Below are positions 1 through 36,889 of a stretch of DNA of 50,659 bases, piece by piece (position 1 is the stretch's first letter; each line of letters begins with the position of its first letter). The notes beneath the pieces were generated by a model. That model saw nothing but the letters and a program-made list of their open reading frames with translations, was not told where the DNA came from and did not search any database. Source of the stretch: Macrostomum lignano. Lineage: Eukaryota. The translations under genes were made by a program, and so were the position numbers. The stretch spans positions 1-50,659 of the forward strand of contig NIVC01004320.1 of NCBI GenBank assembly GCA_002269645.1. Reading direction: 5' to 3'.

Positions 1-83
1 CGAAAATTTCGGAGTCAGTCCACCTTCTTATATACTTTTCTGGCAGCAGTTTCAGCCAGGTGTGTTGCTCCCGTACCCCTTGA

Positions 84-701
84 CTAGACTTCCTGTTCTT
101 TCTCCAGTTCACCCCCTCTGCTGGTTGCCATTTTCTTCTTAACTGATTTACCAATAGCGGAAAGCGGAACATTAAGCTTTTTCTGCTGCAGAAAATCGAT
201 GAACGTTCCACCCAACTGGTTCACGCTCACATGGGAATCCCTCACTGTGTGCTGAATCAAGTCCAGTATGTTTGAGGAAGGGATTGACGTGCCTGCGATT
301 TCCACCTCCCCGTTTTCACAAACTCGAATCAGCTCTGGATTGGTGGACAGGATCGTCCACAGACTGCGAGCCCTGGTTTTGAATTTCTGTGGCACCGACT
401 TGCTGATCTTCTCTTCCCAGGTGCTTATCTGGGGTGTCTCTGTTTTCATCAACTTGGCTTCAGTATTGCGTGCTCCTTCTTTTCCAGCGTGCTTGCGCTT
501 GGCCAGCAAACTTTGCATTGCACTTTGGTACATGGCGGTTTTCACATCTTCTGGACAATCCTCGGCATACAAGATGTCATCGCATTTCTTCTGAGCCTGC
601 TTCAAGTCAGCTTCAGTGGTAGTCTCATTTGGCTTCAAATTCTGCATCAACATCTCATACTCTGCTTTAGGAATCAGAACCATTTCTGAAAATTTGTTCA
701 T
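84..701 (-). CDS. Conserved Polinton protein of unknown function; 3' part probably frameshifted
   Basis: EMVLIP at the N-terminus, SVPQKFKTRARSLW, NGEVEIAGTSIPSSNILDL and LNVP match my recollection of a conserved Polinton ORF. EPVGW (about 207-224) and NQLRRKW lie in alternative frames. Confidence 0.7.
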   Translation of the reverse strand: MNKFSEMVLIPKAEYEMLMQNLKPNETTTEADLKQAQKKCDDILYAEDCPEDVKTAMYQSAMQSLLAKRKHAGKEGARNTEAKLMKTETPQISTWEEKISKSVPQKFKTRARSLWTILSTNPELIRVCENGEVEIAGTSIPSSNILDLIQHTVRDSHVSVNQLGGTFIDFLQQKKLNVPLSAIGKSVKKKMATSRGGELEKEQEV

Positions 702-1004
702 TTTGCTTCTTCTTCTTTACCAGCTTAAGCAGAATCGGGAGTATTTTGATGAAGCCAGCCTTCAACAAGTCTGTCTTTCTTCTTTGTGAGTAATTTTTCG
801 AATTATCTCTTTTGACTTTGCAAGAACAGCTTTTTCATCGAGCGAAAACGATAGATTGTTTTGTAAGAGATTATGGCAGGCCTCGACAAGAAAATAACGC
901 ACTTCTTTTGGACAATTTTTTATCAACAGCCGCTTGAAGCGCACGGTATATTTAGGTGACGCAAGAACCGCAAAAAGACTTGCATATGAATCAAGCACTT
1001 CCAT
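667..1004 (-). CDS. Small conserved Polinton protein with pX(mu)-like hydrophobic C-terminus; -1 frameshift at 776-778
   Basis: ATG at 1004. RLLIKNCPKEVRYFLVEACHNLLQNNLSFS is followed, in the -1 frame, by KTDLLKAGFIKILPILLKLVKKKK, which resembles the family GGFLPxLL tail. Stop at 667-669. Confidence 0.7.
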
Positions 1005-1045
1005 TGCGATGAAAACAATAGCTGATAAAAACAAGCTTCACTTTC

Positions 1046-1692
1046 TTAAGCAAATACAAGATGGGGTCGCTGGTTGGGCAGAATTCTGGCCCGCACTCGC
1101 AGCTCATCGGGAGTTGATGGGTGAAAGTCTAGGAACAGGTAGGCTCCCCTGCCCTGCGCGGTCACGTGCTTGAACACTGACAGCAGAAAGCCGGGCTTCT
1201 CTGTAAAGCACTGCCTGCCCAGTGCTGCAATCTGCAGCTGGTCTCGGGGTTTTTCAAGATAGCTAAGTACATTACATTCAAGCTCATTGTTCGCGACTCT
1301 TTTCCCTTGAAAAATATATTCTGAGTCAGCATCACCAAAAAGCACGGCAAGTGATGTGCGATTCCTGTGAAAAAATTTCGCATTGAAGCAGAGTTTGAAG
1401 TTTCCTCTATTAAGTCATCGAAAACAACCAGGTCATTGGGCCTAAGTGCTGCCTCGATGTTGGTGGGAAATCCCTGGCGCAGCTGCACACCTAGGCTGTT
1501 CAGTTCTGCATGGCCTGCCTGTGAGATCCCATAGTACCACAGAACTCTGCCAGGCTTCACATCAAACATGACGTCTCTGTACTGGATCAGGTGTTCGACA
1601 AAGGTTGTTTTTCCTGCATTGGTGGGCCCGCAGACAATCATGCAGCTTCCCTGCCTGAGGCGGATATCGTAGCAAACTTGCTTTTCTCCCAT
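1046..1692 (-). CDS. A32/FtsK-HerA-like genome packaging ATPase; -1 frameshift at about 1246-1255
   Basis: Walker A GPTNAGKT, Walker B LVVFDDL, HH..LVMLTQN. LKNP continues as RDQLQIAALGRQ...YLFLDFHPSTPDELRVR in the -1 frame (ORFs 1162..1725 and 1046..1345). Confidence 0.92.
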
Positions 1693-1715
1693 GTTTAATG
1701 CATAAATATTAGAAA

Positions 1716-2228
1716 TCACGGACATCTTTTTCTTAAGTTGGCTTCAAACCTCTGTAAGATTCTATCATTCAAATGATTTTTCTCATTAGCATGCAAATGC
1801 TTCAAAATCCCCTCAAATGACCGATTGAACAGAAACTTTTGATAAGCAAAATAGATGCAAAACATTCCGCATTTATTAGAGTTAGCACATTGAACTCTGT
1901 TTATATTGCTTCGGAGCCAAAAGCCAGTTGTTTTAATCTCTCGAAACAAATTATAAACCAAAGATAAAATTTCAGGTTCCCAGCCGAGGGAGTTGAACAA
2001 CTCAATGCGATTTCCTTGCCCAACATAGCACACCACCCAGTGACCAAATGAGCCATTGTGCTGAAGTAGGACAAAAACAAACTTGTTTTCAAAGGAAATT
2101 GATGATCTAAATTTTCTTTTTACATTCAAGGGCAGAGAATTTTTATAGCGCAAATGTAAAGTAACTATGAGAAATTTTTGGTAAGGCAAAAATTTTCTGG
2201 CGAGATTAAGTAGTTGAATTGCATCCAT
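1716..2228 (-). CDS. Adenain/Ulp1-like cysteine maturation protease
   Basis: GHW (catalytic His), LFNSLG (acid position is Asn), VQ (oxyanion Gln), KCGMFC (catalytic Cys). Located between MCP and ATPase. Confidence 0.88.
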   Translation of the reverse strand: MDAIQLLNLARKFLPYQKFLIVTLHLRYKNSLPLNVKRKFRSSISFENKFVFVLLQHNGSFGHWVVCYVGQGNRIELFNSLGWEPEILSLVYNLFREIKTTGFWLRSNINRVQCANSNKCGMFCIYFAYQKFLFNRSFEGILKHLHANEKNHLNDRILQRFEANLRKRCP

Positions 2229-2233
2229 GTCAA

Positions 2234-3516
2234 TTAAGAGGAATAGTCCAGCAAAAGCTCTCGGTGCTTGGTGACCTCAATCAGCGAGTCATACAGGCAC
2301 ATAGCAATCAGGGACACCGCTTCATTCAGAGCCTGTTGGAAGCGAATCTCCAGCCGCAGGTTGCCCTCCTTCTGTCCGTACCACAGAGCCGCTCCCTCGG
2401 GTGTGAGATCGAATGCAAACACCGTGGTGTTGTTGGAGAAGAGCTGGTAGGGGATCCACGGACCGAGTTTGTGTGGCTTGCAGATTGACAGCTTTTCAGG
2501 TAGTGCAAGTATTCTCTTACGAAGGAATTGTTTTCAGGTGTGAAGGCGCCGTGGCACACGGTTTCCCCACCTTTCTTTAGAGCCAATCGGCTAAGGTTGA
2601 AGCTCTGGAACTGTAACGGGCTCGCGTGATGATGACCGTTGAATGCTCGGTGGCTCACGAAGGCCAGCATGATGAACTTCGGCAATTTTCCATGAGTGAA
2701 TCCTTCAATGTTTTTTGACTGAATACCCTGGGGTAGGATGAAGTTCTGCATTTCAGTTCGCTCGATGGGATACAGTGCATTTTGGTTTGTCAGCCCCTGC
2801 TCATGGGCCAGGCTGATGTGGGGCATCACTTTGACTCGGCGAAGATGCAGAATGCTGTGAGAGATTTCCATTCGGTATGCCGCGTTGTTTGCATTCGGGG
2901 TTCTGATGGCAAAGGCCCCATCGCTGGGGACCAGTTTGATGTGCAGGTGCAGATTGCTTAGCAGAAACACTGGGCACTGGAAAACATCGCTGAAGAGCGG
3001 CCCCGCATACTCCATCCATTGGGATTCCCTGTGGCTCTCCGTGTGCTCTTCAGCTGCCGAGTTCGGCTCCAGGAAGCCAGCAGGGTAAAGTTTTAGTTGC
3101 TGGGCATCGGATGAGCTCATTAGTGCTTTGAAGTACGCATGGTAGGGATAGAGCTGGTCTCCACCAGACACCACTCGCTGGTTAATGCTCACAATTACAT
3201 CTGAGAAGGCTGTAGACAGAACAAAATTTTCTGGGTGCACGTCACTGTCTCTGCGCTCGGTGATGATGCCATCTCCATCTCGAACATCCTCCCTCAGCAA
3301 ACCCCCATCCAGTCTCACAAGGCGGCAGCGAATATAAAGAAAAGAATTAAGCAGATCTGTATATTCATCGGCAGATTGGTGGCAGTCAAATTCAATGGGA
3401 GAGTTTGCAACAATGGAATTAACTGGGTGAATATCAACATAAGTAGCTTTTTCAATGCAGGTTTGTAGAACGGGCGTCTTAAATAAATCAAGTCTGGGAT
3501 TGAATCCGTAAGCCAT
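2234..3516 (-). CDS. Major capsid protein (double jelly-roll, hexon-like); -1 frameshift between about 2430 and 2535
   Basis: N-terminal LDLFKTPVLQTCIE...PIEF and internal LPKFIMLAFVSHRAFNG...PLQFQSFNL. The typical C-terminus VFAFDLTP...GNLRLEIRF..AL...VSLIAMCLYDSLIEV is in the -1 frame (ORF 2234..2422). Confidence 0.92.
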
Positions 3517-3518
3517 GT

Positions 3519-3896
3519 CTATGACAGAGAGTCGAGCACGCGTTTCACAGTTTTCTTGCTGACTTTTTGCTTTCGCTTTCCTCCGCCTGCTCTATTCTTC
3601 TTTGCTTTCGTCTTCCTATTCTTAAGCTTTTTCCCACTAGCCTTGCTCGACCTCTTACTGCGATTTCCACCAGTTGCCTTTCGGGTGCCCTTCTTTTTCT
3701 TCAATCGTTTCGGACTTGCTTCAGTATTTCTTTTGCGCCTGACGTTGCTAAGCGTCGAGGCTGATGATGATGATATAGCCGCTGGCGGAGGCTGGTATGT
3801 CATGATCCCTGGGAAGCTCCCACAGCCATAGAGTGCAGGCTTTTCGTGTCCTGTCCTCACCCCCGAATATTGCTGGATTAGCTGCTGGTAGTTCAT
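3519..3896 (-). CDS. Lys/Arg-rich putative virion core (DNA-condensing) protein, 125 aa
   Basis: ATG at 3896 overlaps the penton stop (ATGA). The C-terminal half is highly basic (KRLKKKKGTRK...KRKQK). LYGCG motif. Lies between minor and major capsid genes. Confidence 0.7.
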   Translation of the reverse strand: MNYQQLIQQYSGVRTGHEKPALYGCGSFPGIMTYQPPPAAISSSSASTLSNVRRKRNTEASPKRLKKKKGTRKATGGNRSKRSSKASGKKLKNRKTKAKKNRAGGGKRKQKVSKKTVKRVLDSLS

Positions 3897-4711
3897 TGAA
3901 TGCGTTTCTCCTGAATTTGAACTGTAAGCAGAACAGGGCTGTGAGTCTGTGCAATCAGTGGGCAACCATAGATGTCCCGCAGCTGAACTCGAATGCTGTG
4001 AAGAAGACTGATTCGTTGAATCGGGAAGAATATTGTTTTCTTAAATATTTTTGTTTGATAGTTGCCCCATTCAATGCCAGCTTTCATTCCAACTGTTCTC
4101 AACAAGGAGCTCCAGTTGCAATTAGTTGACTCAACGATACTGCAGTGCACATTGATTAAGCTGGTGCGCGGGCAGCCAATGCAATGCTCGGATACGCGGC
4201 TCCCTGGCTGGATTTTCACAGCCTGGTTTCCAAATCCCAGCCAATGCAGAATTTTACTAGATGGAAGAAACAGCTCTGCTCTCGCAGTGTTGTTGTGCAC
4301 CACAGTTCGTGAGTTGCGGATTTCGAACTTCATACCAAATTCCCTGTTGCCACTACGCCCCATCAGGCCGGACTCATCAGCCTCCATCTCAGACTCCCTG
4401 TCACTCATTGCATCAAAGAACAGCGAATCAGAGTTGGCCAGCAGCTCATTCAGGCGCTCCACCAGCTCCTCCACTCTAGCAAAGCGTCCGGGTTGAAGAA
4501 CCAGGGCCTCATGCTCTCTTCCATCTGAGACAGTGAAGCAGTAAGGCTCGTCAACATTGAACCATGCAGCAGGCAGATGGATTTCAGCCAGACCTGCCTC
4601 ATAGTCCACATTTCGATCCAAGTAAATAGGTGAAGGCAGGTAAAAATTAAAGTCACTAGGAGTACCTTCAGCATGCTCACTGTTAATCAAAATAGTTCGC
4701 ATTATAATCAT
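3893..4711 (-). CDS. Minor capsid protein (penton, single jelly-roll)
   Basis: TPSDFNFYLPSPIYLD..YEAGLAEIHLPAAWFNV at the N-terminus and SLINVHCSIVES...IRVQLRDIYG at the C-terminus, typical of Polinton minor capsid proteins. Confidence 0.88.
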   Translation of the reverse strand: MIIMRTILINSEHAEGTPSDFNFYLPSPIYLDRNVDYEAGLAEIHLPAAWFNVDEPYCFTVSDGREHEALVLQPGRFARVEELVERLNELLANSDSLFFDAMSDRESEMEADESGLMGRSGNREFGMKFEIRNSRTVVHNNTARAELFLPSSKILHWLGFGNQAVKIQPGSRVSEHCIGCPRTSLINVHCSIVESTNCNWSSLLRTVGMKAGIEWGNYQTKIFKKTIFFPIQRISLLHSIRVQLRDIYGCPLIAQTHSPVLLTVQIQEKRIQ

Positions 4712-4739
4712 AAACTACATGATGAGGGCTGTGCCAAAG

Positions 4740-5810
4740 CTAAACCTTTCTTAAGTCTTTTTCATCCACCCAGCCAGTCGAGTCGTAGCCCGCCCATTTC
4801 ACCAGATAGCGAATTTTTCCCTTCCGCTTCTCCGTTTTCAGGATCTTCTTAATCACATACAGCCGCTGTGAGTCCGGGACAGCCTGCAGCTCGTGCTCAT
4901 GGAAGAGTCCTCGAATCTCTTGCCCCCGCATGTCTTTAATCTTGTACATGTAGGGATAATGTTTTGGGGCTCTGCTCACCACGGTGTACACTTCCTCACT
5001 CCAGCTCGCTTTGTATCCCTTTTTGAATATCCGTGGAGCATTGGAAATTCTCACTGACTGGTTTTCAGCGAACTTAGGCTTCTTTAATTTTTCTAGAGTC
5101 TCGACTGCTTTTCCATCGTACAGGTTCATCCACACTTCAGATTCATTCTCTTTGCAGACACTAGTGGGTGCCATTTTGATGCTTCTGTGGTAGGTATTGT
5201 TGTAGGATTTTACCAGCTTAGGCAGCACATCAAGCCAGTGCAGTGTGCTCTTGTAGGTGAAGTAGCGCCACATTCTACTTTTCAGAGTTCGATTCCATCG
5301 CTCAATGACAGCTGCCTTCTGCTCGCTGTTAGTTGGGAAAGCCAGAATCCCTCTGTCAATGCAGTATTGACGGAAAGTGGAGTTGATAAATTCCTTCCCC
5401 TGATCTGTGCGAACTGTGCGTGGCTGGCGCTTTGAACTTCTCAGTATGCTCTCGAATGCTGACTTCACTTCTGCAGCAGATTTATTTTTCAGTGCCTTGG
5501 CCCAAGCACATTTTGAGAGCACGTCAATGCATGTGAGAATATATTTGTAGCCTTTATTATGCTTTGCGAATGGAATCATTTCCACTAAGTCAAGTTCCCA
5601 CTGATCATCGATTGCGCGCACTATGATTGGGGCCCTTGGATATCGCCTCCTAGCTGGCTTGTGCAGAGTGTGCACTGGCTGCTCGCTGAGCCACTGCTCA
5701 ATGCTCTTTGCAGATATTCGATCACCTCTTTGCCTCACTTCATGCAGCAACTTTGAGGCACAAGAAAAACTAGCCGGTTGCTCAGGTTTCAAATAAATTT
5801 TCTCCATCAT
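4740..5810 (-). CDS. Retroviral-like (RVE) DDE integrase with C-terminal chromodomain
   Basis: WELDLVEM (D), TDQGKEF (D), AVIERWNRTLK (E). C-terminal YVIKKILKTEKRKGKIRYLVKWAGY..TGWV chromodomain. Uninterrupted 356 aa ORF. Confidence 0.96.
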   Translation of the reverse strand: MMEKIYLKPEQPASFSCASKLLHEVRQRGDRISAKSIEQWLSEQPVHTLHKPARRRYPRAPIIVRAIDDQWELDLVEMIPFAKHNKGYKYILTCIDVLSKCAWAKALKNKSAAEVKSAFESILRSSKRQPRTVRTDQGKEFINSTFRQYCIDRGILAFPTNSEQKAAVIERWNRTLKSRMWRYFTYKSTLHWLDVLPKLVKSYNNTYHRSIKMAPTSVCKENESEVWMNLYDGKAVETLEKLKKPKFAENQSVRISNAPRIFKKGYKASWSEEVYTVVSRAPKHYPYMYKIKDMRGQEIRGLFHEHELQAVPDSQRLYVIKKILKTEKRKGKIRYLVKWAGYDSTGWVDEKDLRKV

Positions 5811-6130
5811 GGGTTTATCAAGATACGTGCCTATCCACCTGCTCTAGCTGTACAGTATTTTTTCTTAAGTAGAAATTTATATTCCAATTAAATGATAGAG
5901 AAACGAGTGGCAAATTAATTTATTACTGTCAGATTGAAACCTCTAACATCGTAACAGTCGGTGTATTTTCCGAAAGCAAACAATCCATAAAAACGAACAC
6001 TAAAACACTCGCACACCAGCATTTCAGAAATAGCAGAGATAAAAAACAGCATAGTGCCGTCAGGCTGGATAATCATGTGCAAGCTAAAAGTAATTTAGTT
6101 AGTCCAATGCATTCAAAGCATTCTAGCTGT

Positions 6131-6907
6131 TCAGTTATCAAAGCGAACATTGGGCTGCAGCCTCATCGCGTCCTGCCGACGAAGTTGAAATGGCAGCTTT
6201 CGCTTCCTGCTGCTGCTGCTCACCGTCGAAGCCGCTGCATGCGCCCTGAACTGATACCACACCGGATCTTCCTCAAGGTTGGTGTCCCGCTGCGGAAGCA
6301 GTCCAGCATCAGAATCAACCGAAGGTATCGGTGTGGATGTGATTGGCTCAGTCACAATGCGCGGCCTTGTGGGCGAGCTAACGTCCTCGTCATCAGCATG
6401 ATCTCCGCCCTCATCAGTCTCCATTATGGGCTTCGTGTCCTGGTCAGCCTCCAACTTGAGCTTCTTGTCCTCTTCCTCCTCTTCCTCATCAGACTCCAGC
6501 TCGTACTGCATTGTGTTCCTCAAGGGAGCCACCAGCTGACCGTCGATCCAGGAGGCGATTTTCCAGAGCTTCTGCCACAGCGGCGGAGTCAGTGGTACGG
6601 CGTTTCGTCTCAAAAACTCCTCGCAGCAATCTTCCGGCAGCCGTTTGAGCCAAATGATGCCGCCTTTGACTTCCACAAACTTATCGAAGCCGAGTTTCAC
6701 GACCTTGGGCTCGTTGTTGCGTGCAGAAATCACAAGTGAGCGTTTCACCTCCTTCAATTTCTTCCATTGGTGAACATTCAGGTTGAATCCTGGGACGCCT
6801 GGCTTCAGACTTGCCGTGCTGCCGTGTCGGTAAAACTTGCGAATAGCGATAAATTTTTGTCCTTCAAACTCCTGGACTTGTGCCTTATAGCCTTCACAGA
6901 TGTCCAT
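6131..6907 (-). CDS. Protein with two PC4-like (p15 coactivator/ssDNA-binding) domains and acidic, low-complexity tail
   Basis: VQEFEGQKFIAIRKFY...LKPGVPGFNLNVHQWKKLKE matches the PC4 pattern. A second degenerate copy LGFDKFVEV...VPLTPPLWQKL follows, then an acidic run and an RKRK motif. Confidence 0.8.
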   Translation of the reverse strand: MDICEGYKAQVQEFEGQKFIAIRKFYRHGSTASLKPGVPGFNLNVHQWKKLKEVKRSLVISARNNEPKVVKLGFDKFVEVKGGIIWLKRLPEDCCEEFLRRNAVPLTPPLWQKLWKIASWIDGQLVAPLRNTMQYELESDEEEEEEDKKLKLEADQDTKPIMETDEGGDHADDEDVSSPTRPRIVTEPITSTPIPSVDSDAGLLPQRDTNLEEDPVWYQFRAHAAASTVSSSSRKRKLPFQLRRQDAMRLQPNVRFDN

Positions 6908-7011
6908 TTTCCTTTCGCAATTGAAAACTCACAAAAGTTAAAAGCTGAGGAAAATTTCGGATGAAATTTTGGATTTGAAAAATTGAGAATTCTTTCTTGT
7001 CAATTTCGGGG

Positions 7012-7075
7012 CTTATATACCCTCGACCGAACCACCCCAAACCACCCATCCCACTCCGGGCTCTGTGATTGGCTC
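7012..7075 (-). promoter_or_regulatory. Putative Pol II promoter of the PC4 gene (TATATAAG and CCAAT)
   Basis: Minus-strand TATATAAG at 7012-7019, about 105 nt upstream of the ATG, and AGCCAATCA about 50 nt further upstream. Confidence 0.45.
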
Positions 7076-7113
7076 TTTCGCAAACATTATTTCCAATTAC
7101 ATAGATTAACATC

Positions 7114-7610
7114 TTATCTCTGCAGTGTTAACCACCCCCAATGCAAAGAGATAGGCCGCCTCTCCTCCTATCTCTGCAGTGTTAACCACCCCAATGCAAA
7201 GAGATAGGCCGCCTCTCCTCCTATCTCTGCAGTGTTAACCACCCCCAATGCAAAGAGATAGGCCGCCTCTCCTCCTATCTCTGCAGTGTTAACCATCTCC
7301 AGTGTAAAGAAATAGGCCGCCTCTTCTCCTATCACTCCTGTGTTAAGCAGAGATAGAGCTCATATCTCTGCAGTGCTTAGCCGTCCCCAATGCACAGAGA
7401 TAGAGCTCATATCTCTGCAGTGCTTAGCCGTCCCCAATGCACAGAGATAGAGCTCATATCTCTGCAGTGCTTAGCCGTCCCCAATGCACAGAGATAGAGC
7501 TCATATCTCTGCAGTGCTTAGCCGTCCCCAATGCACAGAGATAGAGCTCATATCTCTGCAGTGCTTAGCCGTCCCCAATGCACAGAGATAGGGCTCATAT
7601 CTCCGCAGTG
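7114..7610. repeat. Subterminal tandem arrays (about 4 x 53-54 bp, then about 5.5 x 47 bp) sharing a TATCTCTGCAGTG core, each unit self-complementary
   Basis: Units read directly. CAGAGATA-gagctca-TATCTCTG inverted repeat in the 47-mer. Confidence 0.9.
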
Positions 7611-7708
7611 TATTTTTCCCTATACATTTGCATTGCCGCCTATCTCGCCAGTGCTAGTGCGGCAGTATCATAATTCGCCCTACTACTGCCGTCCCGAACA
7701 CCCCTTAT

Positions 7709-8213
7709 CACCAATTCACCCACGTCACCAATTCACCCACGTGACCAATTCACCCACGTCACCAATTCACCCACGTCACCAATTCACCCACGTCACCAAT
7801 TCACCCACGTCACCAATTCACCCACGTCACCAATTCACCCACGTCACCAATTCACCCACGTCACCAATTCACCCACGTCACCAATTCACCCACGTCACCA
7901 ATTCACCCACGTCACCAATTCACCCACGTCACCAATTCACCCACGTCACCAATTCACCCACGTCACCAATTCACCCACGTCACCAATTCACCCACGTCAC
8001 CAATTCACCCTCGTCACCAATTCACCCACGTCACCAATTCACCCTCGTCACCAATTCACCCACGTCACCAATTCACCCACGTCACCAATTCACCCACGTC
8101 ACCAATTCACCCTCGTCACCAATTCACCCACGTCACCAATTCACCCTCGTCACCAATTCACCCACGTCACCAATTCACCCACGTCACCAATTCACCCTCG
8201 TCACCAATTCACC
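7709..8213. repeat. 17-bp minisatellite CACCAATTCACCCACGT, about 30 copies
   Basis: Direct reading. Confidence 0.95.
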
Positions 8214-8261
8214 TAGCTTACCAAAATTCCTTAGTCTGCGGGAATAGGCATTAAGTGTCAG

Positions 8262-8424
8262 CCACAGATACTATATAACTAGATAGGTCACTCCCTATCT
8301 CGCTGTGGGGACCAAAAATGATACTACTACTACTATAAACATTTTTCACTACTGATGGCTGGTCCTAAGAGTAGTGTGAGAGTAAATTAACCGAGTGACC
8401 TATCTAGTTATATAGTATCTGTGG
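8262..8424. mobile_element. 163-bp MITE, perfect 32-bp TIRs, 6-bp TSD TGTCAG
   Basis: CCACAGATACTATATAACTAGATAGGTCACTC (8262-8293) and its exact reverse complement (8393-8424). TGTCAG at 8256-8261 and 8425-8430. Confidence 0.88.
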
Positions 8425-8833
8425 TGTCAGCTCAGGTCCCTGTCACATCGATAACGCCCTGCGACGAAATACGATTAAATCAGCTGTCCAATGTATTCAC
8501 CGATTAAACCTCCTGGATGGGGCAGAGCAGCTTAGCGGCCACATTAATTTGGGGCTTGGGCTCGAAAACTGGTCGGAGGCTGATGCGCGATTCACAACCC
8601 ACGAGGGGCAACCCTTATTAGAAATTAGGAAGTCAGAGTCGCTGTACACCCTGTGTGAGCTGTGTGAGAGTGCGTGCCTGCGTACAGTATCCGCGCGCTT
8701 GCATGTGCTCAGGAGTCAGCGGAATAAGCCGAATTGCCTCAGCGCGCTGGTTGTGGGATAATGTCCAGGCGTTGCGCCAGGGTGCCCACAGCCAACTTGC
8801 GATTGTGCATGCATAACCCTTCTGGATCCGCAG

Positions 8834-11800
8834 TTCCTCGCTGTGACATGTCCACTGCGAGCAACTTCAACTGGACTCGGATGCAGCCGGACGTCGATCC
8901 CATCGCCGACGGTCGGATCGTCAAGGCGGCCTGCGCCCCGGGCTTCTTCAGGACCAGCGAGGTGGACGGAACGCCGGACAGCCTGATCAGAAACCGCTAC
9001 CGCTGTGACCACGTCAGCAGTGCCAGCAGCATTGGCACGGCGAATCTGGTGGCCATGAACAACACCGTTGTGGACCATTGCAAGCGTGAGTGAGGCCTGG
9101 GATATTTGTGCTTGCGCACTCTTGCAAGCGTGAGTGAGGCCTGGGATATTGGTGCGTGCGCACTCTTGCAAGCGTGAGTGAGGCCTGGGATATTGGTGCG
9201 TGCGCACTCTTGCAAGCGTGAGTGAGGCCTGGGATATTGGTGCGTGCGCACTCTTGCAAGCGTGAGTGAGGCCTGGGATATTGGTGCGTGGCACTCTTGC
9301 AAGCGTGAGTGAGGCCTGGGATATTGGTGCGTGGCACTCTTGCAAGCGTGAGTGAGGCCTGGGATATTGGTGCGTGCGCACTCTTGCAAGCGTGAGTGAG
9401 GCCTGGGATATTGGTGCGTGCGCACTCTTGCAAGCGTGAGTGAGGCCTGGGATATTGGTGCGTGGCACTCTTGCAAGCGTGAGTGAGGCCTGGGATATTG
9501 GTGCGTGCGCACTCTTGCAAGCGTGAGTGAGGCCTGGGATATTGGTGCGTGGCACTCTTGCAAGCGTGAGTGAGGCCTGGGATATTGGTGCGTGCGCACT
9601 CTTGCAAGCGTGAGTGAGGCCTGGGATATTGGTGCGTGCGCACTCTTGCAAGCGTGAGTGAGGCCTGGGATATTGGTGCGTGCGCACTCTTGCAAGCGTG
9701 AGTGAGGCCTGGGATATTGGTGCGTGCGCACTCTTGCAAGCGTGAGTGAGGCCTGGGATATTGGTGCGTGCGCACTCTTGCAAGCGTGAGTGAGGCCTGG
9801 GATATTGGTGCGTGGCACTCTTGCAAGCGTGAGTGAGGCCTGGGATATTGGTGCGTGCGCACTCTTGCAAGCGTGAGTGAGGCCTGGGATATTGGTGCGT
9901 GGCACTCTTGCAAGCGTGAGTGAGGCCTGGGATATTGGTGCGTGCGCACTCTTGCAAGCGTGAGTGAGGCCTGGGATATTGGTGCGTGGCACTCTTGCAA
10001 GCGTGAGTGAGGCCTGGGATATTGGTGCGTGCGCACTCTTGCAAGCGTGAGTGAGGCCTGGGATATTGGTGCGTGGCACTCTTGCAAGCGTGAGTGAGGC
10101 CTGGGATATTGGTGCGTGGCACTCTTGCAAGCGTGAGTGAGGCCTGGGATATTGGTGCGTGCGCACTCTTGCAAGCGTGAGTGAGGCCTGGGATATTGGT
10201 GCGTGCGCACTCTTGCAAGCGTGAGTGAGGCCTGGGATATTGGTGCGTGCGCACTCTTGCAACAGTGGGAACATCAATGATTTCTAAGACCAATAGTGCA
10301 TAAAATTTTACAACAGCACAGAGATTTGTACATCGCTGTGACACGCCAACCCCTTCGCGCTCCAGCCATGAGCTGCCAGGGCAGCGTGCTGCTGAACCTC
10401 AACCTGCAGGTGGACTTCAAGGAGACGTACCGGAACCGGATCGACCCGAACCGCGAGTACCTGTTCGGCGAGTCCATCCCGGTCGAGTGCAAGACTGGCT
10501 ACGTGAAGATCACCAACCGCACGGACATCAACTCCACCATCGACTGTCGTCAGAACGCGCTGAAGCCGAACGAGGGCCAGTGGGACCCCATCTTCTGCAC
10601 CCGTGAGTCCGGGGACTGGATCAGATCTCAGATTTTCTATCATCCTACTATTAGGCAGTATTATAGGATTCAGTAGATTAATAATAATTTCAAATAGACA
10701 AAAACTGAAACATAGCTCATAGAAAACCAATGTTGAGCAAGTTAGCTACATCGCTCATACACTGCCAGTAGCCAGGAATGCACTCCAATAGCCAGAAGCA
10801 GTCAGAAAAGTCCCACAAAATAGGTGCAGACAATAATATCTTTTGGGAAATTGCCAAGGACGGTGAATCGCCAAAAAACTTCCCTCCTTGCAGCCGTCGG
10901 GTGCAACAAGTCGGCAATGTCAGGCGCCTACGACTACAACACCATGCAGATGTACAAGGCCTACGACCGGCTCAAGGACCGCACCTACACTTCGTCCGAG
11001 ACGCACATGTTTCCCTACTACCCCAACACCGTGTACGTGCGCTGCTCCACTCCCGGCCAGTTTTTCAGGGACCGAAAGTACGACAAGACCTTCCAGTGCA
11101 ACTTGGTGCCGAACAGCACCATCGAGGCCACGTGGAGCCCCGTGGAGGGCACTCTGGAGTCCTCCATGCAGTGCCAGCGTGAGTTTGGGGCCCTTGGCGG
11201 CCGCTCTTGGCTGCAAAGTTGTCCGAAGCAAAAGTCCCAGGACGAGCTTATAAAGCTTGACTCCCCATAAGCCGCCCCTTTTCTCAAGAAGGCTCAAAAG
11301 ATTGAAATACTCGCTGGTCTAGCGATTCCAGCTTTTACGAGTAGCAATCCTTGAAGCCCGGGTGGCTTTTTAAGCACTCGCGTACTCTTGAGCTTAGGGC
11401 TCAAGCTTGAGATACAACTCGATCCTCATTCGAGTCCAGTTAGGTACGCACTTCAGTACGCACGCACTCTGCACCCGCAGCTATAACGTGCCTGACAAAC
11501 GAGCTGGTGGCCATGAGCTACCGAGCAACAATTCAGGATTACCTCACCAAAGGCAACTTCAACTCTAGCGTCACCCTCACTGACGACACCGGCCTGGAGA
11601 CTAAAGTCCCCTTGAAGGATTTCCTCTCGGCGTCCGAGTATAAGTACACGGTGTCCGTTCGATTCGACTGCCAGAGCGGATTCGCCATGTCGACCGTGAA
11701 TGACACCACCGGAAAGTTCATGTCCGTGAGCAGCATGCAGACCAGCTGCAGCTCCGTCGGCTCCTGGAACAAAATAATCAGCGAGTGCATCAGTGAGAAT

Positions 11801-12282
11801 CTGACAATCTGTCCCTGCAATGCCGGGGATCTTGATTCTGAGATGACCATGATTGAAGATTGTGAATTGTGATGAATACAGCGTCAAAAAATGTTTTTGT
11901 CGTGTGAATTCCTGTTTCCTGGAAACTCACCAAATTTCTGTTTCCTGGAAACTAATTGAATGCCTGTTTCCTGGAAACTAATTGAATGCCTGTTTGCTGG
12001 AAACTAATTGAATGCCTGTTTCCTGGAAACTCATTGTGAATACCTGCGTTCCCCGCAGAGATGTCCGCCGCCATCGACGCCACCTCGGGCAAGAAGTTCG
12101 TGCCGGAGCCGAAGGAGGCCGGCTCGGCGCAGTCTCTGGGCGCCACCGTCATCGTCATCCTGGTGGTGTTCTTCACGCTGATCGTGGTGCTGGATATCGC
12201 TACGCTGTCCCGTGACATCAAGCTGCTGAAGCAGAACATCCGGCGCCTGAAGCTCAAGGCCAGCATGAAGAAGAACGACTGA
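8834..12282 (+). CDS. Sushi/CCP-domain type I membrane protein, 5' end not identified
   Basis: Exons 8834-9085, 10366-10602, 10894-11178, 11481-11792, 12059-12282. All introns are phase 1 GT-AG. Each module has C..C..G(F/Y)...C...W...C. The last exon encodes a TM helix (LGATVIVILVVFFTLIVVLDI) and a basic tail. Confidence 0.8.
9078..10262 (+). repeat. 43/44-bp intronic minisatellite, about 27 copies, each containing the exon end plus donor TTGCAAGC|GTGAGT
   Basis: Direct reading; begins across the exon-intron junction at 9085/9086. Confidence 0.95.
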
Positions 12283-13583: not shown

Positions 13584-22102
<8,519 letters not shown>

Positions 22103-23273: not shown

Positions 23274-25490
23274 ATGTCTCAAGAAGCCGAGGAGGAGCCA
23301 GTCAGCGTTCGCAGCATCTCTGTGCCTCTGCTTCCGGAAGCAGCAGCAAGCGAAGCAGCAACTGAAGTATCGGTGAAAGCAGCAATGGAAGGTCAGAGGG
23401 CAGCCGAGGCTGGAAGCCACAGGAGCAGCAGAAGCCGTAGCGGCAGCCCAGTTAGCAGCGCCGGCAACAGCAGAGCAGCCAGTAGGAGCAGCAGCAGGGC
23501 GGGCAGCACCACCGGAAGCAGCACCGGAAGCAGCAGTGACGCTGGCATCATCGGGGCGGCCGTCTCAACGCTGCGCGGTCTCCGGCGGCAAGTGCACCGA
23601 CGTCTTCTGCGCCGGCCTCTGGCTTGGCGACTCCGGGCGCGGCCGCTGCGAAACACCGCCAACTCCAACTTGGCGGCGGCTGGACAGGCCGAGCCGCTGC
23701 GCAACGCCAACGCCAGGCGGCTTCTGGGCGGCCGGCACGGCCACAGCCGGAGCCACAGTCGCACTGGCGAAGAGAGCAGTGCCAGGTGAAGCTGAGAGCA
23801 GAGCAGTGCCAGGTGAAGCTGAGAGCAGAGCAGTGCCAGGTGAAGCTGAGAGCAGAGCAGTGCCAGGTGAAGCTGAGAGCAGAGCAGTGCCAGGTGAAGC
23901 TGAGAGCTGAGCAGTGCCAGGTGAAGCTGAGAGCAGAGCAGTGCCAGGTGAAGCTGAGAGCAGAGCAGTGCCAGGTGAAGCTGAGAGCAGAGCAGTGCCA
24001 GGTGAAGCTGAGAGCAGAGCAGTGCCAGGTGAAGCTGAGAGCAGAGCAGTGCCAGGTGAAGCTGAGAGCAGAGCAGTGCCAGGTGAAGCTGAGAGCAGAG
24101 CAGTGCCAGGTGAAGCTGAGAGCAGAGCAGTGCCAGGTGAAGCTGAGAGCAGAGCAGTGCCAGGTGAAGCTGAGAGCAGAGCAGTGCCAGGTGAAGCTGA
24201 GAGCAGAGCAGTGCCAGGTGAAGCTGAGAGCAGAGCAGTGCCAGGTGAAGCTGAGAGCAGAGCAGCGCCAGGTGAAGCTGAGAGCAGAGCCAGTGCCAGC
24301 AGTGCAGGAAGCTCAACCCCCCTCTATCCAAACTCTGCAAACCGGTAGGTTGCAGCTGAAGGCACTTCGGGCGGTGCTGCGGAGCCGCGGTGCGGTCAGC
24401 CGACAGATCGTCAGCAGGGCGGCGGAGGCGGCGGCCCTGACAGGCAGCGACGAGGCCTCGCTAGCCGGAAGCAACACCGTCTGGGATGGCGTGTTCACCA
24501 GCCTGAGCCCCACGGACACCGGCGGGGTGTTCGGCTCGCTGCTGTTCGTCCTGCTGCTGGCGCTCGGCCTCTTCCTATGCGCGGAGAGCGCGCAGCCCAA
24601 CCTGCACCGCTCCAAGCAGGAGATGTTCGTCTGGGCCTTCGTTCAGGTGCGCCGCTTGCTCTCAGACTGTCTGCGTGTTGGTTGTGTGAGCAGTGAGTGA
24701 CCAGATGAGCATGCTTGCAATTGCAGACAGTGAGCAGTGAGTGACCAGATGAGCATGCTTGCAATTGCAGACAGTGAGCAGTGAGTGACCAGATGAGCAT
24801 GCTTGCAATTGCAGACAGTGAGCAGTGAGTGACCAGATGAGCATGCTTGCAATTGCAGACAGTGAGCAGTGAGTGACCAGATGAGCATGCTTGCAATTGC
24901 AGACAGTAAGCAGTGTAATCCTGAACTACGCCTCTTTCCTGGGCGCCATCTGCATGCTGGCGGTTTTCCAATGGCGCCGCGCTAGGGCGCGCCATCAGCG
25001 GCGCCTCCAGCTGCGGCTGCAGCGCGAGTGGATGCGCCACGTGCGCGAGGTCTGCGAGGACATGCAGCGCAGGGGCCAGACGGAGCAGGCGGGCCAGCAG
25101 CCAGCCGAGCAGCAGCAGACAGCGCAGCAGCAGGAGCAGAAGCAGCCGCACCAGAAGCAGCAAGCGGCGCAGCAGCAGAAATCGCAGCAACAGCAGCAGC
25201 CGGGGAGCTCGCAGAACAACACGGCGGCTCACTTTGGCAACAACGCCAGTAACGACGAGGCGATGAGGCTGCGCAGGAAAGGCGCCGAGCTGCTGCGGAT
25301 GGTGTCGGAGCTGGAGAAGCTGGCGGCGCTGGAGCTGCGGCTGGAGGCCTCGGACTCGGAGCTGGAGGAGCTCGCGGCGGCGTACCCGGAGAAGATCGGC
25401 AGCGCCTGGGTGAGCGCCGGCTGGCGCGCCAGCCTCTACCGAGCGCGGGGCCAGGAGGACGCGGCCTTCGCGCAGCTGCAGCCGACTTAA
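23274..25490 (+). CDS. Unknown multi-pass membrane protein with Ser/Arg-rich N-terminus and Gln-rich/coiled-coil C-terminus
   Basis: Exons 23274-23785, 24349-24646, 24903-25490 (phases 2 and 0, compatible). Hydrophobic segments FGSLLFVLLLALGLFLC and VSSVILNYASFLGAICMLAVF. Family not recognised. Confidence 0.65.
23773..24290 (+). repeat. 27-bp intronic minisatellite, 19 copies of exon end plus donor AGAGCAGTGCCAG|GTGAAG
   Basis: Direct reading. Confidence 0.93.
24690..24915 (+). repeat. 44-bp intronic minisatellite, 5 copies of acceptor TTGCAATTGCAG|ACAGT
   Basis: AG ends at 24726, 24770, 24814, 24858 and 24902; the last is the inferred real acceptor. Confidence 0.9.
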
Positions 25491-30699: not shown

Positions 30700-33600
30700 T
30701 CAGGAGTGGCGGGACGCCCCGCTCGGGTGCTTCCGTCGCTGGTCCTCCTGGGTGACGCGCTGCTGAATGACCCGCTCCGCCTTCAGCACGTTTGCCTGCG
30801 GGTGCGGGGCCTGCAGCTGAAATTCCTGCGCACTGCGCATTGCGATACCAGGGATTCTCACAGGTGAGGGAAAGCCAACCACCGATGTTTCTAACCGGTG
30901 AGGGACATCCACTTACCGGTGTTTCTAACCGGTGAGGGACATCCACTTACCGGTGTTTCTAACCGGTGAGGGACATCCACTTACCGGTGTTTCTAACCGG
31001 TGAGGGACATCCACTTACCGGTGTTTCTAACCGGTGAGGGACATCCACTTACCGGTGTTTCTAACCGGTGAGGGACACCTACTTACCGGTGTTTCTAACC
31101 GGTGAGAAACACCCACCTGCCGGGGTTTCCTACCTGCACAGCGGTGACCGACACCTACCCAACAGGGATTCTGACAAGTGACAGACACACACAGGGATTC
31201 TCACCTGCATGCCGGTGATGGACACACACACAGGGATTCTCACCTGCATGCCGGTGATGGACACACACAGGGATTCTCACCTGCATGCCATTAATGGACA
31301 CACACACAGGGATTCTCACCTGCATGCCGGTGATGGACACACACACAGGGATTACCTGCATGCCGGTGATGGACACACACAGGGATTCTCACCTGCATGC
31401 CATTAATGGACACAACACGGTTGCGCGACTGTGTCTGCGAGTCGCCCCGCTTGGACACTTGGATGCAGGTGTGGGTGGCGGTCTGCAGCTCGGCGATGTC
31501 GCGGCCACCGGGCCCGAGGACGACACCAATCAGAGATTCGGGAACCTCAACGTCCCGCTTGTAGACTCCGCCTGTGGCAGCGGCTGCGGCAGCCGCAGCG
31601 GCAACAGCGGCTCCGTAGTTTTCGTAGGCCGGGCCGCTGGGGAAGATGAAGGCCGCGGCCCCGGGGTCGCCCCCGCCGCCGCCGGGGGTCACCAACTGGC
31701 TGGAGAAATCGTTCGAAGCGGCAACGGCTCCGGCAGCCCCATCGTTTATCGGTGGAGGCGGCGGCGGCGGCGCCTGCAGAGCCGAGAGCGAGCCATGCGG
31801 CAGGCTGTACGAGTTCATCGGCGAGGCCATCAGGGGCGGCATCGGCGTCGAGGGCGTAGAAATCAGTGGCATCTGGCAAAGTCAGGTGGGGTTGGGGAGT
31901 TGGGGATCTGGGAGCGGCATGCAGACTGATTCAGGTTGCAGGGATCTGGGAGCGGCATGCAGACTGATTCAGGTTGCAGGGATCTGGGAGCGGCATGCAG
32001 ACTGATTCAGGTTGCAGGGATCTGGGAGCGGCATGCAGACTGATTCAGGTTGCAGGGATCTGGGAGCGGCATGCAGACTGATTCAGGTTGCAGGGATCTG
32101 GGAGCGGCATGCAGACTGATTCAGGTTGCAGGGATCTGGGAGCGGCATGCAGACTGATTCAGGTTGCAGGGATCTGGGAGCGGCATGCAGACTGATTCAG
32201 GTTGCAGGGATCTGGGAGCGGCATGCAGACTGATTCAGGTTGCAGGGATCTGGGAGAGCGGCATGCAGACTGATTCAGGTTGCAGGGATCTGGGAGCGGC
32301 ATGCAGACTGATTCAGGTTGCAGGGATCTGAGAGCGGCATGCAGACGCGAGAATGAAGTGCGGACACGAAACAATCAAGCAGTGCTCAGACCTGCGCGGG
32401 CACCAGCGACTGCATGTTGAAGAAGCCGTAGTTGGCCAGGGTGGCCATGGCGCCAACGATTTCATCCGAGGCCGCCTCCGAGTAGCCGCTCTGACGCAGG
32501 GAGGCCCGCAGGGCATCGGCCGAGATCTGCGCGAACTGCTGCGCCGAGCTGGCGGAATTCTGCGAGGAGCTCAGGCTGAGCTGCTGCGCCAGGCCGCGCC
32601 CGCCTGTTGGGGCCGCCGTCTGCTGCGGCGAGCCGGGGCCGCCAGACAGCGCGTAGGGGCTGCCGGTGGGGTACGCGCTGGCCACGGGCCCGGAGATGTC
32701 CGAGTAGCTGATGTTCGGACAACTGGCCGACTGCGGGTCCTCGGCGATCTTCGCCACGATCATTGCCGCGGCCGCCCTGTTGGCCTCCGAGTCGCCCGCG
32801 ACGGTGACGCAGCGCTCCGACAGGGCCTGGTCCTTCGGCTTCTGCGACACCTGCACGAATGCGCCGCTGGCGTCCATGATCTCCTTGATAAAGGCGCCCT
32901 TCTTGCCGATGATCATCCCGGCTGTGCTGTTCGGCACCAGGATCTTCAGCTGGAGCAGTCCGGGGGGGGCGGGTCAGACTGGCTGCGGACATGTGTGCCA
33001 GGAAAGGAGGAGGACACAGTCTGGGTGTCAATGAGGGTGGAGGACACAGTCTGGGAGTCAATGAGGGTGGAGGACACAGCCTGGGTGTCAATGAGGGTGG
33101 AGGACACAGCCTGGGAGTCAATGAGGGTGGAGGACACAGCCTGGGTGTCAATGAGGGTGGAGGACACAGTCTGGGTGTCAATGAGGGTGGAGGACACAGC
33201 CTGGGAGTCAATGAGGGTGGAGGACACAGCCTGGGTGTCAATGAGGGTGGAGGACACAGTCTGGGTGTCAATGAGGGTGGAGGACACAGCCTGGGTGTCA
33301 ATGAGGGTGGAGGACACAGCCTGGGTGTCAATGAGGGTGGAGGACACAGCCTGGGTGTCAATGAGGGTGGAGGACACAGCCTGGGTGTCAATGAGGGTGG
33401 AGGACACAGTCTGGGTGTCAATGAGGGTGGAGGACACAGTCTGGGTGTCAATGAGGGTGGAGGACACAGCCTGGGTGTCAATGAGGGTGGAGGACACAGC
33501 CTGGGAGTCAATGAGGGTGGAGGACACAGCCTGGGTGTCAATGAGGGTGGAGGACACAGCCTGGGAGTCAATGAGGGTGGAGGACACAGCCTGGGTGTCA

Positions 33601-35179
33601 ATGAAGGTGGAGGACACAGCCTGGGAGTCAATGAGGGTGGAGGACACAGCCTGGGAGTCAATGAGGGTGGAGGACACAGCCTGGGAGTCAATAAGGGTGG
33701 AGGACACAGCCTGGGTGTCAATGAAGGTGGAGGACACAGCCTGGGTGTCAATGAGGGTGGAGGACACAGCCTGGGTGTCAATGAGGGTGGAGGACACAGC
33801 CTGAGAGTCAATGAGGGTGGAGGACACAGCCTGGGAGTCAATGAGGGTGGAGGACACAGCCTGGGTGTCAATGAGGGTGAAGGACACAGCCTGGGAGTCA
33901 ATGAGGGTGGAGGACACAGCCTGGGAGTCAATGAGGGTGGAGGACACAGCCTGGGTGTCAATGAGGGTGGAGGACACAGCCTGGGTGTCAATGAGGGTGG
34001 AGGACACAGCCTGGGTGTCAATGAGGGTGGAGGACACAGCCTGGGAGTCAATGAGGGTGGAGGACACAGCCTGGGTGTCAATGAGGGTGGAGGACACAGC
34101 CTGGGTGTCAATGAGGGTGGAGGACACAGCCTGGGTGTCAATGAGGGTGGAGGACACAGCCTGAGAGTCAATGAGGGTGGAGGACACAGCCTGGGAGTCA
34201 ATGAGGGTGGAGGACACAGCCTGGGTGTCAATGAGGGTGAAGGACACAGCCTGGGAGTCAATGAGGGTGGAGGACACAGCCTGGGAGTCAATGAGGGTGG
34301 AGGACACAGCCTGGGTGTCAATGAGGGTGGAGGACACAGCCTGGGTGTCAATGAGGGTGGAGGACACAGCCTGGGAGTCAATGAGGGTGGAGGACACAGC
34401 CTGGGTGTCAATGAGGGTGGAGGACACAGCCTGGGTGTCAATGAGGGTGGAGGACACAGCCTGGGTGTCAATGAGGGTGGAGGACACAGCCTGGGAGTCA
34501 ATGAGGGTGGAGGACACAGCCTGGGTGTCAATGAGGGTGGAGGACACACCCTGGGTGTCAATGAGGGTGGAGGACACAGCCTGGGTGTCAATGAGGGTGG
34601 AGGACACAGCCTGGGTGTCAATAAGGGTGGAGGACACAGCCTGGGTGTCAATAAGGGTGGAGGACACAGCCTGGGAGTCAGGCGGGAGTGTATCAGGCAG
34701 CAATCATCTGCCAATATAATCTGCTTGCCTGTTTGTGCCGCTCAACATTGAGTTTGCCGTCCCCAGTCAGCTTGGGATTGGGGTCCGGCTTCTCCAGAAT
34801 CTGCTCCATGATGCAGGTGCAGACTGCGATGATGGAGTCCACCGTGCCCTGGATGAGGCAGACTCGCTCCGTAGTGCCTGGCAGTTGATTTGCATTAAGC
34901 ATAAATGGAGTCTGTCAGTTCGAGCTCCAAACTAGACAGCTCAATCATATTGCTTAACCAAGTATACTTTACTGTAAATAGTACTGTAAGTACTGTGAAA
35001 TACTGTAATTTCCAGGAATCTATAATCCGTCTCACCTGGATAAAAGTCATTGGACTTGGACATCTTTACTTTGGCTCCCTTTTCCTTCTGCAGCTGGGCA
35101 ATGGCCTCGCCACCCTTGCCAATGATGGCGCCAGCAGCAATGGATGGCACCAGAATCTTGAACAGCACATTGTCTGCTG
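30700..35179 (-). CDS. NOVA: Nova/pasilla-family KH-domain RNA-binding splicing regulator (3 KH domains)
   Basis: Exons 35179-35036, 34877-34729, 32949-32392, 31872-31393, 30795-30700. KH1 [18 protein letters not shown]...[21 protein letters not shown]2 [20 protein letters not shown]3 [16 protein letters not shown]...SKRG...RNRVVSING, all characteristic of Nova. Confidence 0.95.
30884..31103. repeat. 34-bp intronic minisatellite carrying CCG|GTAAGT on the Nova sense strand
   Basis: About 6 copies. Confidence 0.88.
31197..31412 (-). repeat. 37-41-bp intronic array, 6 copies of Nova exon end plus donor GGCATGCAG|GTGAGA
   Basis: Direct reading on the minus strand. Confidence 0.9.
31903..32345. 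repeat. 38-bp intronic minisatellite, about 12 copies
   Basis: GGGATCTGGGAGCGGCATGCAGACTGATTCAGGTTGCA unit. Confidence 0.92.
33009..34680. repeat. 30-bp intronic minisatellite, about 56 copies, in the Nova KH1-KH2 intron
   Basis: GGAGGACACAGCCTGGGTGTCAATGAGGGT unit. Confidence 0.96.
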
Positions 35180-36889
35180 CTAAGGGGCAAAGCAGGAGTT
35201 AACTGTGACCATGGAGAAAATTTATTAATGCTAAGTTATTAAAGTAATACAAAGCCAACAGTTTGCATATATCGCCTATTTTTTAAAAATGCTATATTTA
35301 AAAGCAATACAGGTACAAAATGTATTTATATATCTATAGTAAATGAAATACAATACACAAAATTTAATCTCTAGCCACTATTCAGCCAAAACTAGCCAAA
35401 TCAGCTTGTGGCTTATGCCTTTAATTTAGCTAGCAAAAGTACACTTTGAGAATTAGAAATGCATAGGGGGCTATATTTCTGAATTAAAAATTATCTGGCT
35501 AAAAGTTTTTGCACTTTTTATATATTAATATTAGGTATGTGGGAGGCCTCTTTCTATTATTTATTTGTACACAAAAATCTAACTTTCTGTGCTATTTCAA
35601 AGTCTGCATGTTACTAAGAAAAACAATTTGTTTTAATACTCATATTTCTCAAAATATTTTTGCAATTATTTTTTGTTATAAATGACCTGAAATTTTAGTA
35701 TAAATAAGCACAAATTCAGCGAAGGAAAGACCAACTCATATTCACCACAGTTCCTAAGAGAAGAGTTAACAGTGACTAAGAAAGAAGAGTTCCGAGTAAA
35801 TGTATTTGAAGACTGTTTTCAATGTTAATTCATTTTACTAAGAGAAGTGAAGTAGAAGGAAGCGCATACCATATATACTACTAAGAAGCAGAAGTGTTAA
35901 GTAGAAGAATACAAAGTAGATCCTAACAGTACATATAAAGTACTGGAGGCTGTGACCCTCTGATCCTAGTAAATGCCCAAGACTAGAAATATATAAAGTA
36001 CATATACCAGTCGACCATATATACTACTCAGACTAGAATAATATTAAATGCTACCAGAATAACAGTAAGAACACTACCTATGAGAGTTAACTAATATTCA
36101 GAAGAATTCTCAGACAAATACTTAGACCTATGCTTAGATAAGTACTTAGACCTATACTAAGAACTTTTTTCAGACTTATTCTAGGAAAATAAATTCACAA
36201 TAGAGTAGTCTTGGTGGCAGCAATAGAACATTTAAGAGACAGAAGGAAAGCCCTGTATAACTTTGGTGGCAGTTTATGAGATTTCATAGTATACAAGAAA
36301 CATGCCTGTCATAACTTGGTGGCTTAATGGTTGAAATTTTCAAGAAAGAACAATTAGCCCTATAACAGTTAGAACAAAATATATCATTGTTTTTATTCAA
36401 TTTTCTTCATTCCTACTTTTATGGTTTTATGATTTTTATTTTCTTCATAATATTAGCTCTTGTTAGCTCTTGCAATATGTAGGTTTACTTGGAACTAAAA
36501 TGAAAAACTAAAAAATAGATATCCAAAAAGCAATTGCTTGCCAAAAATTTGCAAGTGTAGCTACTTTTAAGCCACAACTAAAATTTAATCATCTTTGGAA
36601 ATCTTCTTTGAATCATTTTTATTAAATATTGTTATAGATTAAATATAGTTATAGATAAAATGATTGAAAAAATGAAAAGAAAAAATGTCAAAGCTATAAA
36701 CTAGATATAGGAACATTTTCTAACTTAGCTATAGCAGCTGCTGAACTGCTAAGTTTAAATTTGTAAATAAAAAAATGATTTTTTTGATTTTTTGTTTCTT
36801 TATTTTTATGTTTGATAATTATTAATAGGCTAAAAAGTTAATAGAGCATACAATATAAAACATAATGCTATATATTAACTAATATTACC

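Follow-up and report, generated by a model that had tools for sequence, protein, structure and literature searches.

What kind of element occupies the start of contig NIVC01004320.1 of Macrostomum lignano (assembly GCA_002269645.1), and is it able to make virus particles? The window, meaning the whole stretch of 50,659 nucleotides analysed here, opens with the right half of what is very probably a recently inserted Polinton (Maverick, an adintovirus-type provirus) of the M. lignano genome. This half covers positions 1-7687 (about 7.7 kb) and consists of nine tightly packed, co-oriented open reading frames (ORFs), all on the minus strand, and the element continues beyond the left edge of the window. 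Read from the right end, the order is terminal region, PC4-domain gene, integrase, penton, small basic protein, major capsid protein (MCP), protease, ATPase, pX-like gene and a 205-residue ORF. Apart from three frame breaks, these ORFs are free of premature stops.

The assignment is carried by the integrase, the protease, the capsid fold and the end of the element. The integrase (4740-5810, minus strand; 356 residues, intact) is retrovirus-like with a C-terminal chromodomain (Pfam rve E=3e-13, Chromo E=1e-4; foamy virus integrase E=3e-13) and has the catalytic acidic motifs, as befits the rve type of Polintons. The adenovirus-type cysteine protease is represented by an intact ORF of 170 residues (1716-2228, minus strand) that matches Pfam Peptidase_C5 above the cut-off (E=8e-5) and contains the His and Cys motifs; no meaningful match to it appeared in a sequence search of PDB. 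The MCP (2234-3516, minus strand, frameshifted near 2461) had no match in Pfam, and sequence searches of PDB were null both with the single sequence and with a 41-sequence profile, so that its identification comes from structural matches and from the alignment of its relatives. The predicted model, with a mean predicted local distance difference test score (pLDDT) of 48.6, reaches confident values only in its first half, which forms the first jelly roll. When it was compared with 48,161 chains, each of the top 12 rows was a viral capsid or scaffold protein with a double jelly roll, the best being the mavirus MCP (Z 11.5, root-mean-square deviation 4.3, 198 aligned residues), and Foldseek was concordant. 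A Cotesia bracovirus protein was named as the best viral match for the fold, and the Cotesia host genome carries a listed Polinton (PMC4028283 Table S1). These matches identify the MCP as a double jelly-roll protein, the capsid fold of Polintons.

At its right end the element finishes with ACTACT (7682-7687, no strand assigned), the (ACT)2 end motif of Mavericks (PMC8097293), as judged from the right end alone. Positions 7021-7687 (no strand assigned) form a probable terminal inverted repeat (TIR), with an inner boundary guessed without the left copy. It holds two related tandem arrays, of 54 bp repeated 4.3 times (7115-7346) and of 47 bp repeated 5.6 times (7348-7610), the units of which agree at 31 of 36 columns. 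No second copy of the element or of its terminal repeat is present elsewhere in the 50,659-nt window, and an Rfam search of positions 1-9000 gave no match.

A first-pass annotation made from the letters alone had proposed a Polinton/adintovirus-type element with co-oriented ORFs that lack internal stops once three slips are allowed, and both proposals are borne out by these results. Its gene identities stand in part: MCP, integrase with chromodomain and protease are recovered by the tools used here, the ATPase has the expected motifs with weak matches, and the penton, core-like and pX-like proteins are without an annotated match. All the ORFs that it listed exist, while the PC4-domain gene (6131-6907) and the 205-residue ORF (84-701) had been missed.

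The capsid also places the element among its relatives. Seven MCP relatives were found among 1803 candidates and, separately, 4048 representatives at E<=0.001. The closest are 77-78% identical and encode the MCP unbroken in one frame of 427 residues; among the matches listed, the remaining representatives are at most 35% identical, except for one 242-residue fragment at 48%. In a FastTree phylogeny of 45 MCPs over 328 columns, built from the in-frame piece of the window and the matches of 390-480 residues up to P0049 (the fragment P0004 and 106 weaker matches were left out, and the rows carry no group labels), the window is joined first by P0001 and P0002 (support 0.97), next by P0003 (0.99) and after that by P0005 and P0006 (1.00), on a long branch. 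As far as sequence goes, this capsid clade is divergent, and it is counted here as new.

That the element belongs to a flatworm-like host, as had been suggested, is confirmed by an M1 aminopeptidase gene in the same window (13584-22099, plus strand; 15 exons, with introns filled with tandem repeats). Two M. lignano proteins, the only matches among 2674 candidates, show 100% and 99% identity to its exon at 13599-14213. That the element is foreign to Macrostomum, a contaminant or free virus joined to host sequence as a chimera, is highly unlikely. Its composition does differ from that of host exons (GC content at third codon positions of 0.37-0.63 in element genes against 0.91 in one host exon), it extends past the window edge, and contaminant adintoviruses in assemblies have been reported by Starrett et al. 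(PMC8502044); however, the junction lies exactly at the canonical terminus and is followed by a satellite, a transposable element and host exons. Two scans of bacterial and archaeal genomes (GTDB; 52 and 58 pattern matches) confirmed no contaminating relative.

The DNA next to the junction has features of its own. A 17-bp satellite of about 30 copies at 97% identity (7708-8213) starts 20 bp outside the Polinton end and is followed by a 161-bp miniature inverted-repeat transposable element (8263-8423) whose 31-bp inverted ends are perfect and whose 8-bp target duplication is exact. By this duplication and its end sequence it may be related to the P superfamily. Exons of a sushi-domain host gene with weak Pfam matches lie at 8834-11870 (plus strand); since the first of them looks internal, the Polinton may sit antisense within an intron of this gene.

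Within this host the insertion looks recent. Across 425 colinear columns, private changes number 40 in the window MCP, compared with 32 and 35 in two intact relatives; of the 43 columns that distant relatives conserve, the window MCP deviates at 6, where the sequences compared with it deviate at 7, 6 and 7. Because the capsid is without excess decay, the copy appears to be young, with no sign in its sequence of long neutral decay, in agreement with the age first proposed. The number of its sister copies is harder to judge from proteins: the later M. lignano GenBank annotation leaves out transcripts that overlap repeats (PMC5730564), so the fact that no near-identical capsid proteins turned up is a poor guide to copy number. 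The UniRef model that matches the aminopeptidase skips stretches of 40 and 50 residues that are present in the window, one of which holds a conserved peptidase motif.

A young copy is not necessarily an intact one. Three frame breaks, all shifting the frame in the same direction, fall in the MCP (near 2461), the ATPase (near 1250) and the pX-like gene (near 790). The break in the MCP, at about residue 352 of the 427-residue relatives, is shown by all six relatives tested, which shift out of frame relative to the window at one shared position, and in the two closest relatives residues 352 and 353 are contiguous across it. In the ATPase and the pX-like gene the break is seen as a frame switch in a codon model trained on the other genes of the element, a noisy model that uses 60-nt windows and makes stray calls elsewhere. 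With its capsid, ATPase and pX-like genes broken, the virion module is not intact as assembled, and the first-pass description of it as complete was overstated; capsid and ATPase are the two genes most essential to morphogenesis. What the MCP loses is the final part of its second jelly roll, and the assembled product should accordingly fail to form capsomers; with both capsid and ATPase frameshifted, the copy as assembled cannot make particles alone. An intact Maverick has been defined by all core ORFs being uninterrupted (PMC8097293), and as assembled several of those of the present copy are interrupted.

Real germline mutations would make this a young insertion that is dead or helper-dependent, an account to which we give an even chance. 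In the host aminopeptidase, 944 of 951 residues map to the 15 exons without a single frame break, which gives none in 2853 host coding bases against three in about 6400 element bases, a contrast that points to mutation but is not significant (P=0.33). Moreover, 96% of vertebrate Maverick loci are degraded (PMC8097293), and radical changes make up 10 of the 40 private capsid changes of the window against 5 of 32 and 8 of 35 in the relatives, although these numbers are small. What germline mutation explains less well is that all breaks point the same way and that no stops accompany them.

Those same two features, together with the lack of excess capsid decay, are expected if the copy is intact in the animal, a competent provirus in which all three breaks are long-read consensus errors. 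We consider this a serious contender that falls somewhat short of an even chance. The accession series of the window is presumably that of the PacBio assembly ML2. Lower base accuracy and fewer intact ORFs are reported for ML2 (PMC5730564), and one UniRef gene model agrees with the window at 100% over its first 281 residues, odd N-terminal extension included. On the other side stand the unbroken aminopeptidase, weak as that contrast is, the MCP break zone, in which no base run exceeds two, and the fact that the assembly of origin is itself assumed. Early mutations rather than consensus errors are thus put at roughly even odds. Programmed ribosomal frameshifting as a means of regulating virion proteins would account for the shared direction and for the open frames downstream, but is scarcely credible: none of the three break zones contains a slippery heptamer (23 occur elsewhere in the element), and relatives at 77-78% identity encode the MCP in a single 427-residue frame, which largely refutes it for this gene.

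The remaining virion-module genes are identified with less certainty. The packaging ATPase (1046-1725, minus strand, with the break near 1250) contains Walker A and B motifs, and about 66 of its codons lie beyond the break in another frame. Its library matches are weak and of a generic P-loop kind (Pfam E 0.02-0.09; E>=0.002 overall in Pfam and NCBIfam; one PHROG at 2.5e-4), and a comparison with phage records gave one weak unannotated match. A putative penton, or minor capsid protein (3893-4711, minus strand; 272 residues, intact), has the expected size and lies one gene from the MCP, the position described for Polintons (PMC4028283). It has a single, unannotated relative that is 58% identical end to end, and its model, built from a two-sequence alignment, has a pLDDT of 29. 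Between the two, an open frame of 125 residues (3519-3896, minus strand; K+R 28%) encodes a small basic, putatively core-like protein in the PW position, named by gene order (PMC8097293), with Atlas leads of only 0.80-0.81, all below 0.9. The small protein in the PM position, called pX-like in the first-pass annotation (668-1004, minus strand, end coordinate approximate), was delimited by the codon model and open frames, with its probable break near 790. An intact ORF of 205 residues (84-701, minus strand) occupies the PZ position, which completes the order ATPase-PM-PZ described in PMC8097293. No match to the core-like, pX-like or 205-residue ORF was found in Pfam, PHROGs or NCBIfam. The PM-position gene may have a pX-like tail, and the products of the genes in the PW, PM and PZ positions may resemble vertebrate Maverick proteins in their motifs.

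Next to the right terminus lies the PC4-domain gene (6131-6907, minus strand), an intact ORF of 258 residues with an acidic tail (Pfam PC4 E=3e-8 to 6e-8, above the cut-off; PDB PC4 E=9e-5). The PC4 domain is a single-stranded-DNA-binding fold. A second PC4 repeat in this gene was considered and is unsupported (shuffle P=0.47). Antisense to the gene runs an open frame of 288 codons (5876-6739, plus strand) without a Pfam match, which is probably a shadow frame.

Several findings weigh against the reading of this region as a young Polinton with a virion module. The pPolB gene, the left TIR and the target duplication fall outside the window, which, with MCP and ATPase frameshifted, also leaves the suggestion that the element is possibly competent unsupported as assembled. 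The names penton, PW, PM and PZ are putative and follow from position and composition. The breaks in the ATPase and the pX-like gene rest on codon bias rather than on homologues, and under neutral decay the chance of no stops beside three frameshifts is 0.05-0.48, depending on the substitution-to-indel ratio assumed, so that such decay would fit the pattern as well.

The life cycle of the element can be sketched from established models. Mavericks are described as self-synthesising by protein priming from a repeated end motif and as integrating with a 6-bp duplication, and purifying selection on their virion genes has been taken as evidence of particles (PMC8097293). Copying would fall to a protein-primed polymerase that initiates at the (AGT)2 ends, and insertion to the chromodomain integrase. 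The family may also spread as particles with a shell of double jelly-roll capsid protein and penton, for which the ATPase would do the packaging and the protease the maturation. The PC4 protein would probably bind single-stranded DNA during strand-displacement replication or aid transcription as a coactivator. With integrase and ends intact, the copy could move with help from sister copies, on which it should depend unless the breaks are errors. Whether the breaks are mutations or errors, the family was functional until recently.

How might so compact a set of genes be expressed? A candidate promoter element, YTTAAG, starts at 5869, 4755, 4045, 3626, 1737, 1050 and 729 (724-5869, minus strand), 12-149 nt ahead of the first ATG in seven of nine genes; it occurs eight times on the coding strand, and seven of these copies precede start codons. 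All six copies of CTTAAG lie within 150 nt of starts (binomial P=5e-5), which ranks it first of 2968 hexamers, with overlapping extensions second and third. A promoter role is proposed as a hypothesis from sequence, and several observations count against it: the motif was noticed before testing and its Bonferroni value is about 0.14; CTTAAG in coding DNA is not above a synonymous-recoding null (P 0.17-0.20); one YTTAAG copy includes the stop codon of the ATPase; and where genes are packed, a site ahead of a start is also near the end of the previous gene. The protease lacks YTTAAG, and the PC4 gene has GTATATAAG instead, a TATA-like sequence (7012-7020, minus strand) about 105 nt upstream with a presumptive promoter function. 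Its only other copy in the element (27-35, minus strand) precedes whatever gene adjoins on the left, where pPolB is expected; positions 1-84 contain no ATG on the minus strand. YTTAAG presumably resembles the TAAG late promoter of baculoviruses. A TAAG or late promoter in Polintons was not found described in the literature searched (a scope from which most subscription journals and Repbase fall out, here and below), including the available text of PMC11161782, PMC11296320 and bioRxiv 2023.08.22.554363. As another explanation of packed, co-oriented genes, the M. lignano trans-splice acceptor motif YTNCAG (PMC8629364) was rejected, as it shows no enrichment upstream of starts (2 of 17, P 0.38-0.86).

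A bolder synthesis, which we rate as improbable, combines these threads: the breaks would be assembly errors, and M. lignano would harbour an active Polinton family of the divergent capsid clade with a two-tier gene programme, in which GTATATAAG precedes the PC4 gene and whatever gene adjoins on the left, and the integrase and virion genes have a dedicated YTTAAGAA element upstream. An element-specific factor or the polymerase of a helper virus could recognise YTTAAGAA. If this were true, particle formation by animal Polintons and its trigger would be directly testable in a laboratory animal.

The rest of the window holds further features. Three KH-domain exons, presumably Nova-like, lie at 31291-35198 (minus strand), and upstream of them about 15 kb at 32% GC without a long ORF is unlike the rest of the window. 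In a foldback-type element (42498-44767), a 52-bp tandem array is flanked by long, imperfect inverted repeats that match at 85-93% in most blocks and are separated by about 1.5-2.2 kb, and a glutamine-rich ORF of 201 codons with a hydrophobic start (24885-25490, plus strand) has only low-complexity Pfam matches.

Set beside known systems, the gene set is familiar. With the vertebrate Mavericks of PMC8097293 the element shares the orders INT-penton-PW-MCP-PRO and ATPase-PM-PZ, the lack of introns and the (ACT)2 end, and the location of both modules on one strand is as reported there for the Xenopus tropicalis Maverick; in contrast to them, it has another host, a PC4 accessory gene and three frame breaks. 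Such a gene set is the norm, with 134 intact vertebrate elements described among 3511 loci (PMC8097293) and a full-length MCP in 46 of 72 Polintons, plus a split MCP in 13 more (PMC4028283). Adintoviruses (PMC8502044) likewise combine hexon, penton, adenain, FtsK-type ATPase, chromodomain integrase and a small pX-bearing gene. Pfam detected no PLA2 domain in the window, which would fit a Beta-type adintovirus virion module, although the Alpha/Beta assignment rests on PolB, outside the window, and on labelled references; nor did it detect similarity to gasdermin or cupiennin, unlike in the adintovirus accessory set. The chromodomain, pX-bearing genes and nuclease-resistant genomes in insect-cell preparations had already been noted there.

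Flatworms are not the poorly sampled lineage that had been supposed, because Schmidtea Polintons are already listed: four in PMC4028283 Table S1, of which two have all four morphogenesis genes. These two, Polinton-1_SM and Polinton-2_SM of Schmidtea mediterranea, share with the window a flatworm host and MCP, penton, ATPase and protease genes, and unlike it are listed as intact in all four, a comparison by table entry rather than by sequence. Related by sequence are P0001, P0002 and P0156 (77-78% in the MCP, 58% in the penton), P0003, P0005 and P0006, which form with the window one well-supported, long-branched MCP clade and have unbroken MCPs. P0001 and P0156, each listed with a contig of 14,411 nt, probably belong to one near-complete element.

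From Macrostomum itself, no Polinton or Maverick description was found in the literature searched: 'Polinton' is absent from the available main text of Macrostomum papers, as is 'Maverick' where searched (pictured tables would escape), and neither word occurs in the supplementary text files of PMC5730564. A PC4 gene in Polintons was likewise not found described in the available text of that literature. What is new here is thus the host, the divergent capsid clade, the PC4 gene and the YTTAAG motif, whereas the gene set itself is standard. Because class and gene set are well known, the finding is ordinary as written, and the PC4 gene and upstream motif are small additions to Polinton anatomy. 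Polinton expression has been reported in corals (PMC11131425). By 2021 no Maverick particle had been observed (PMC8097293), and insect cell lines provided indirect evidence (PMC8502044). Against this background M. lignano offers transgenesis, promoter-mapping libraries and several assemblies, and because of these resources a young family in this animal is convenient for seeking both expression and particles.

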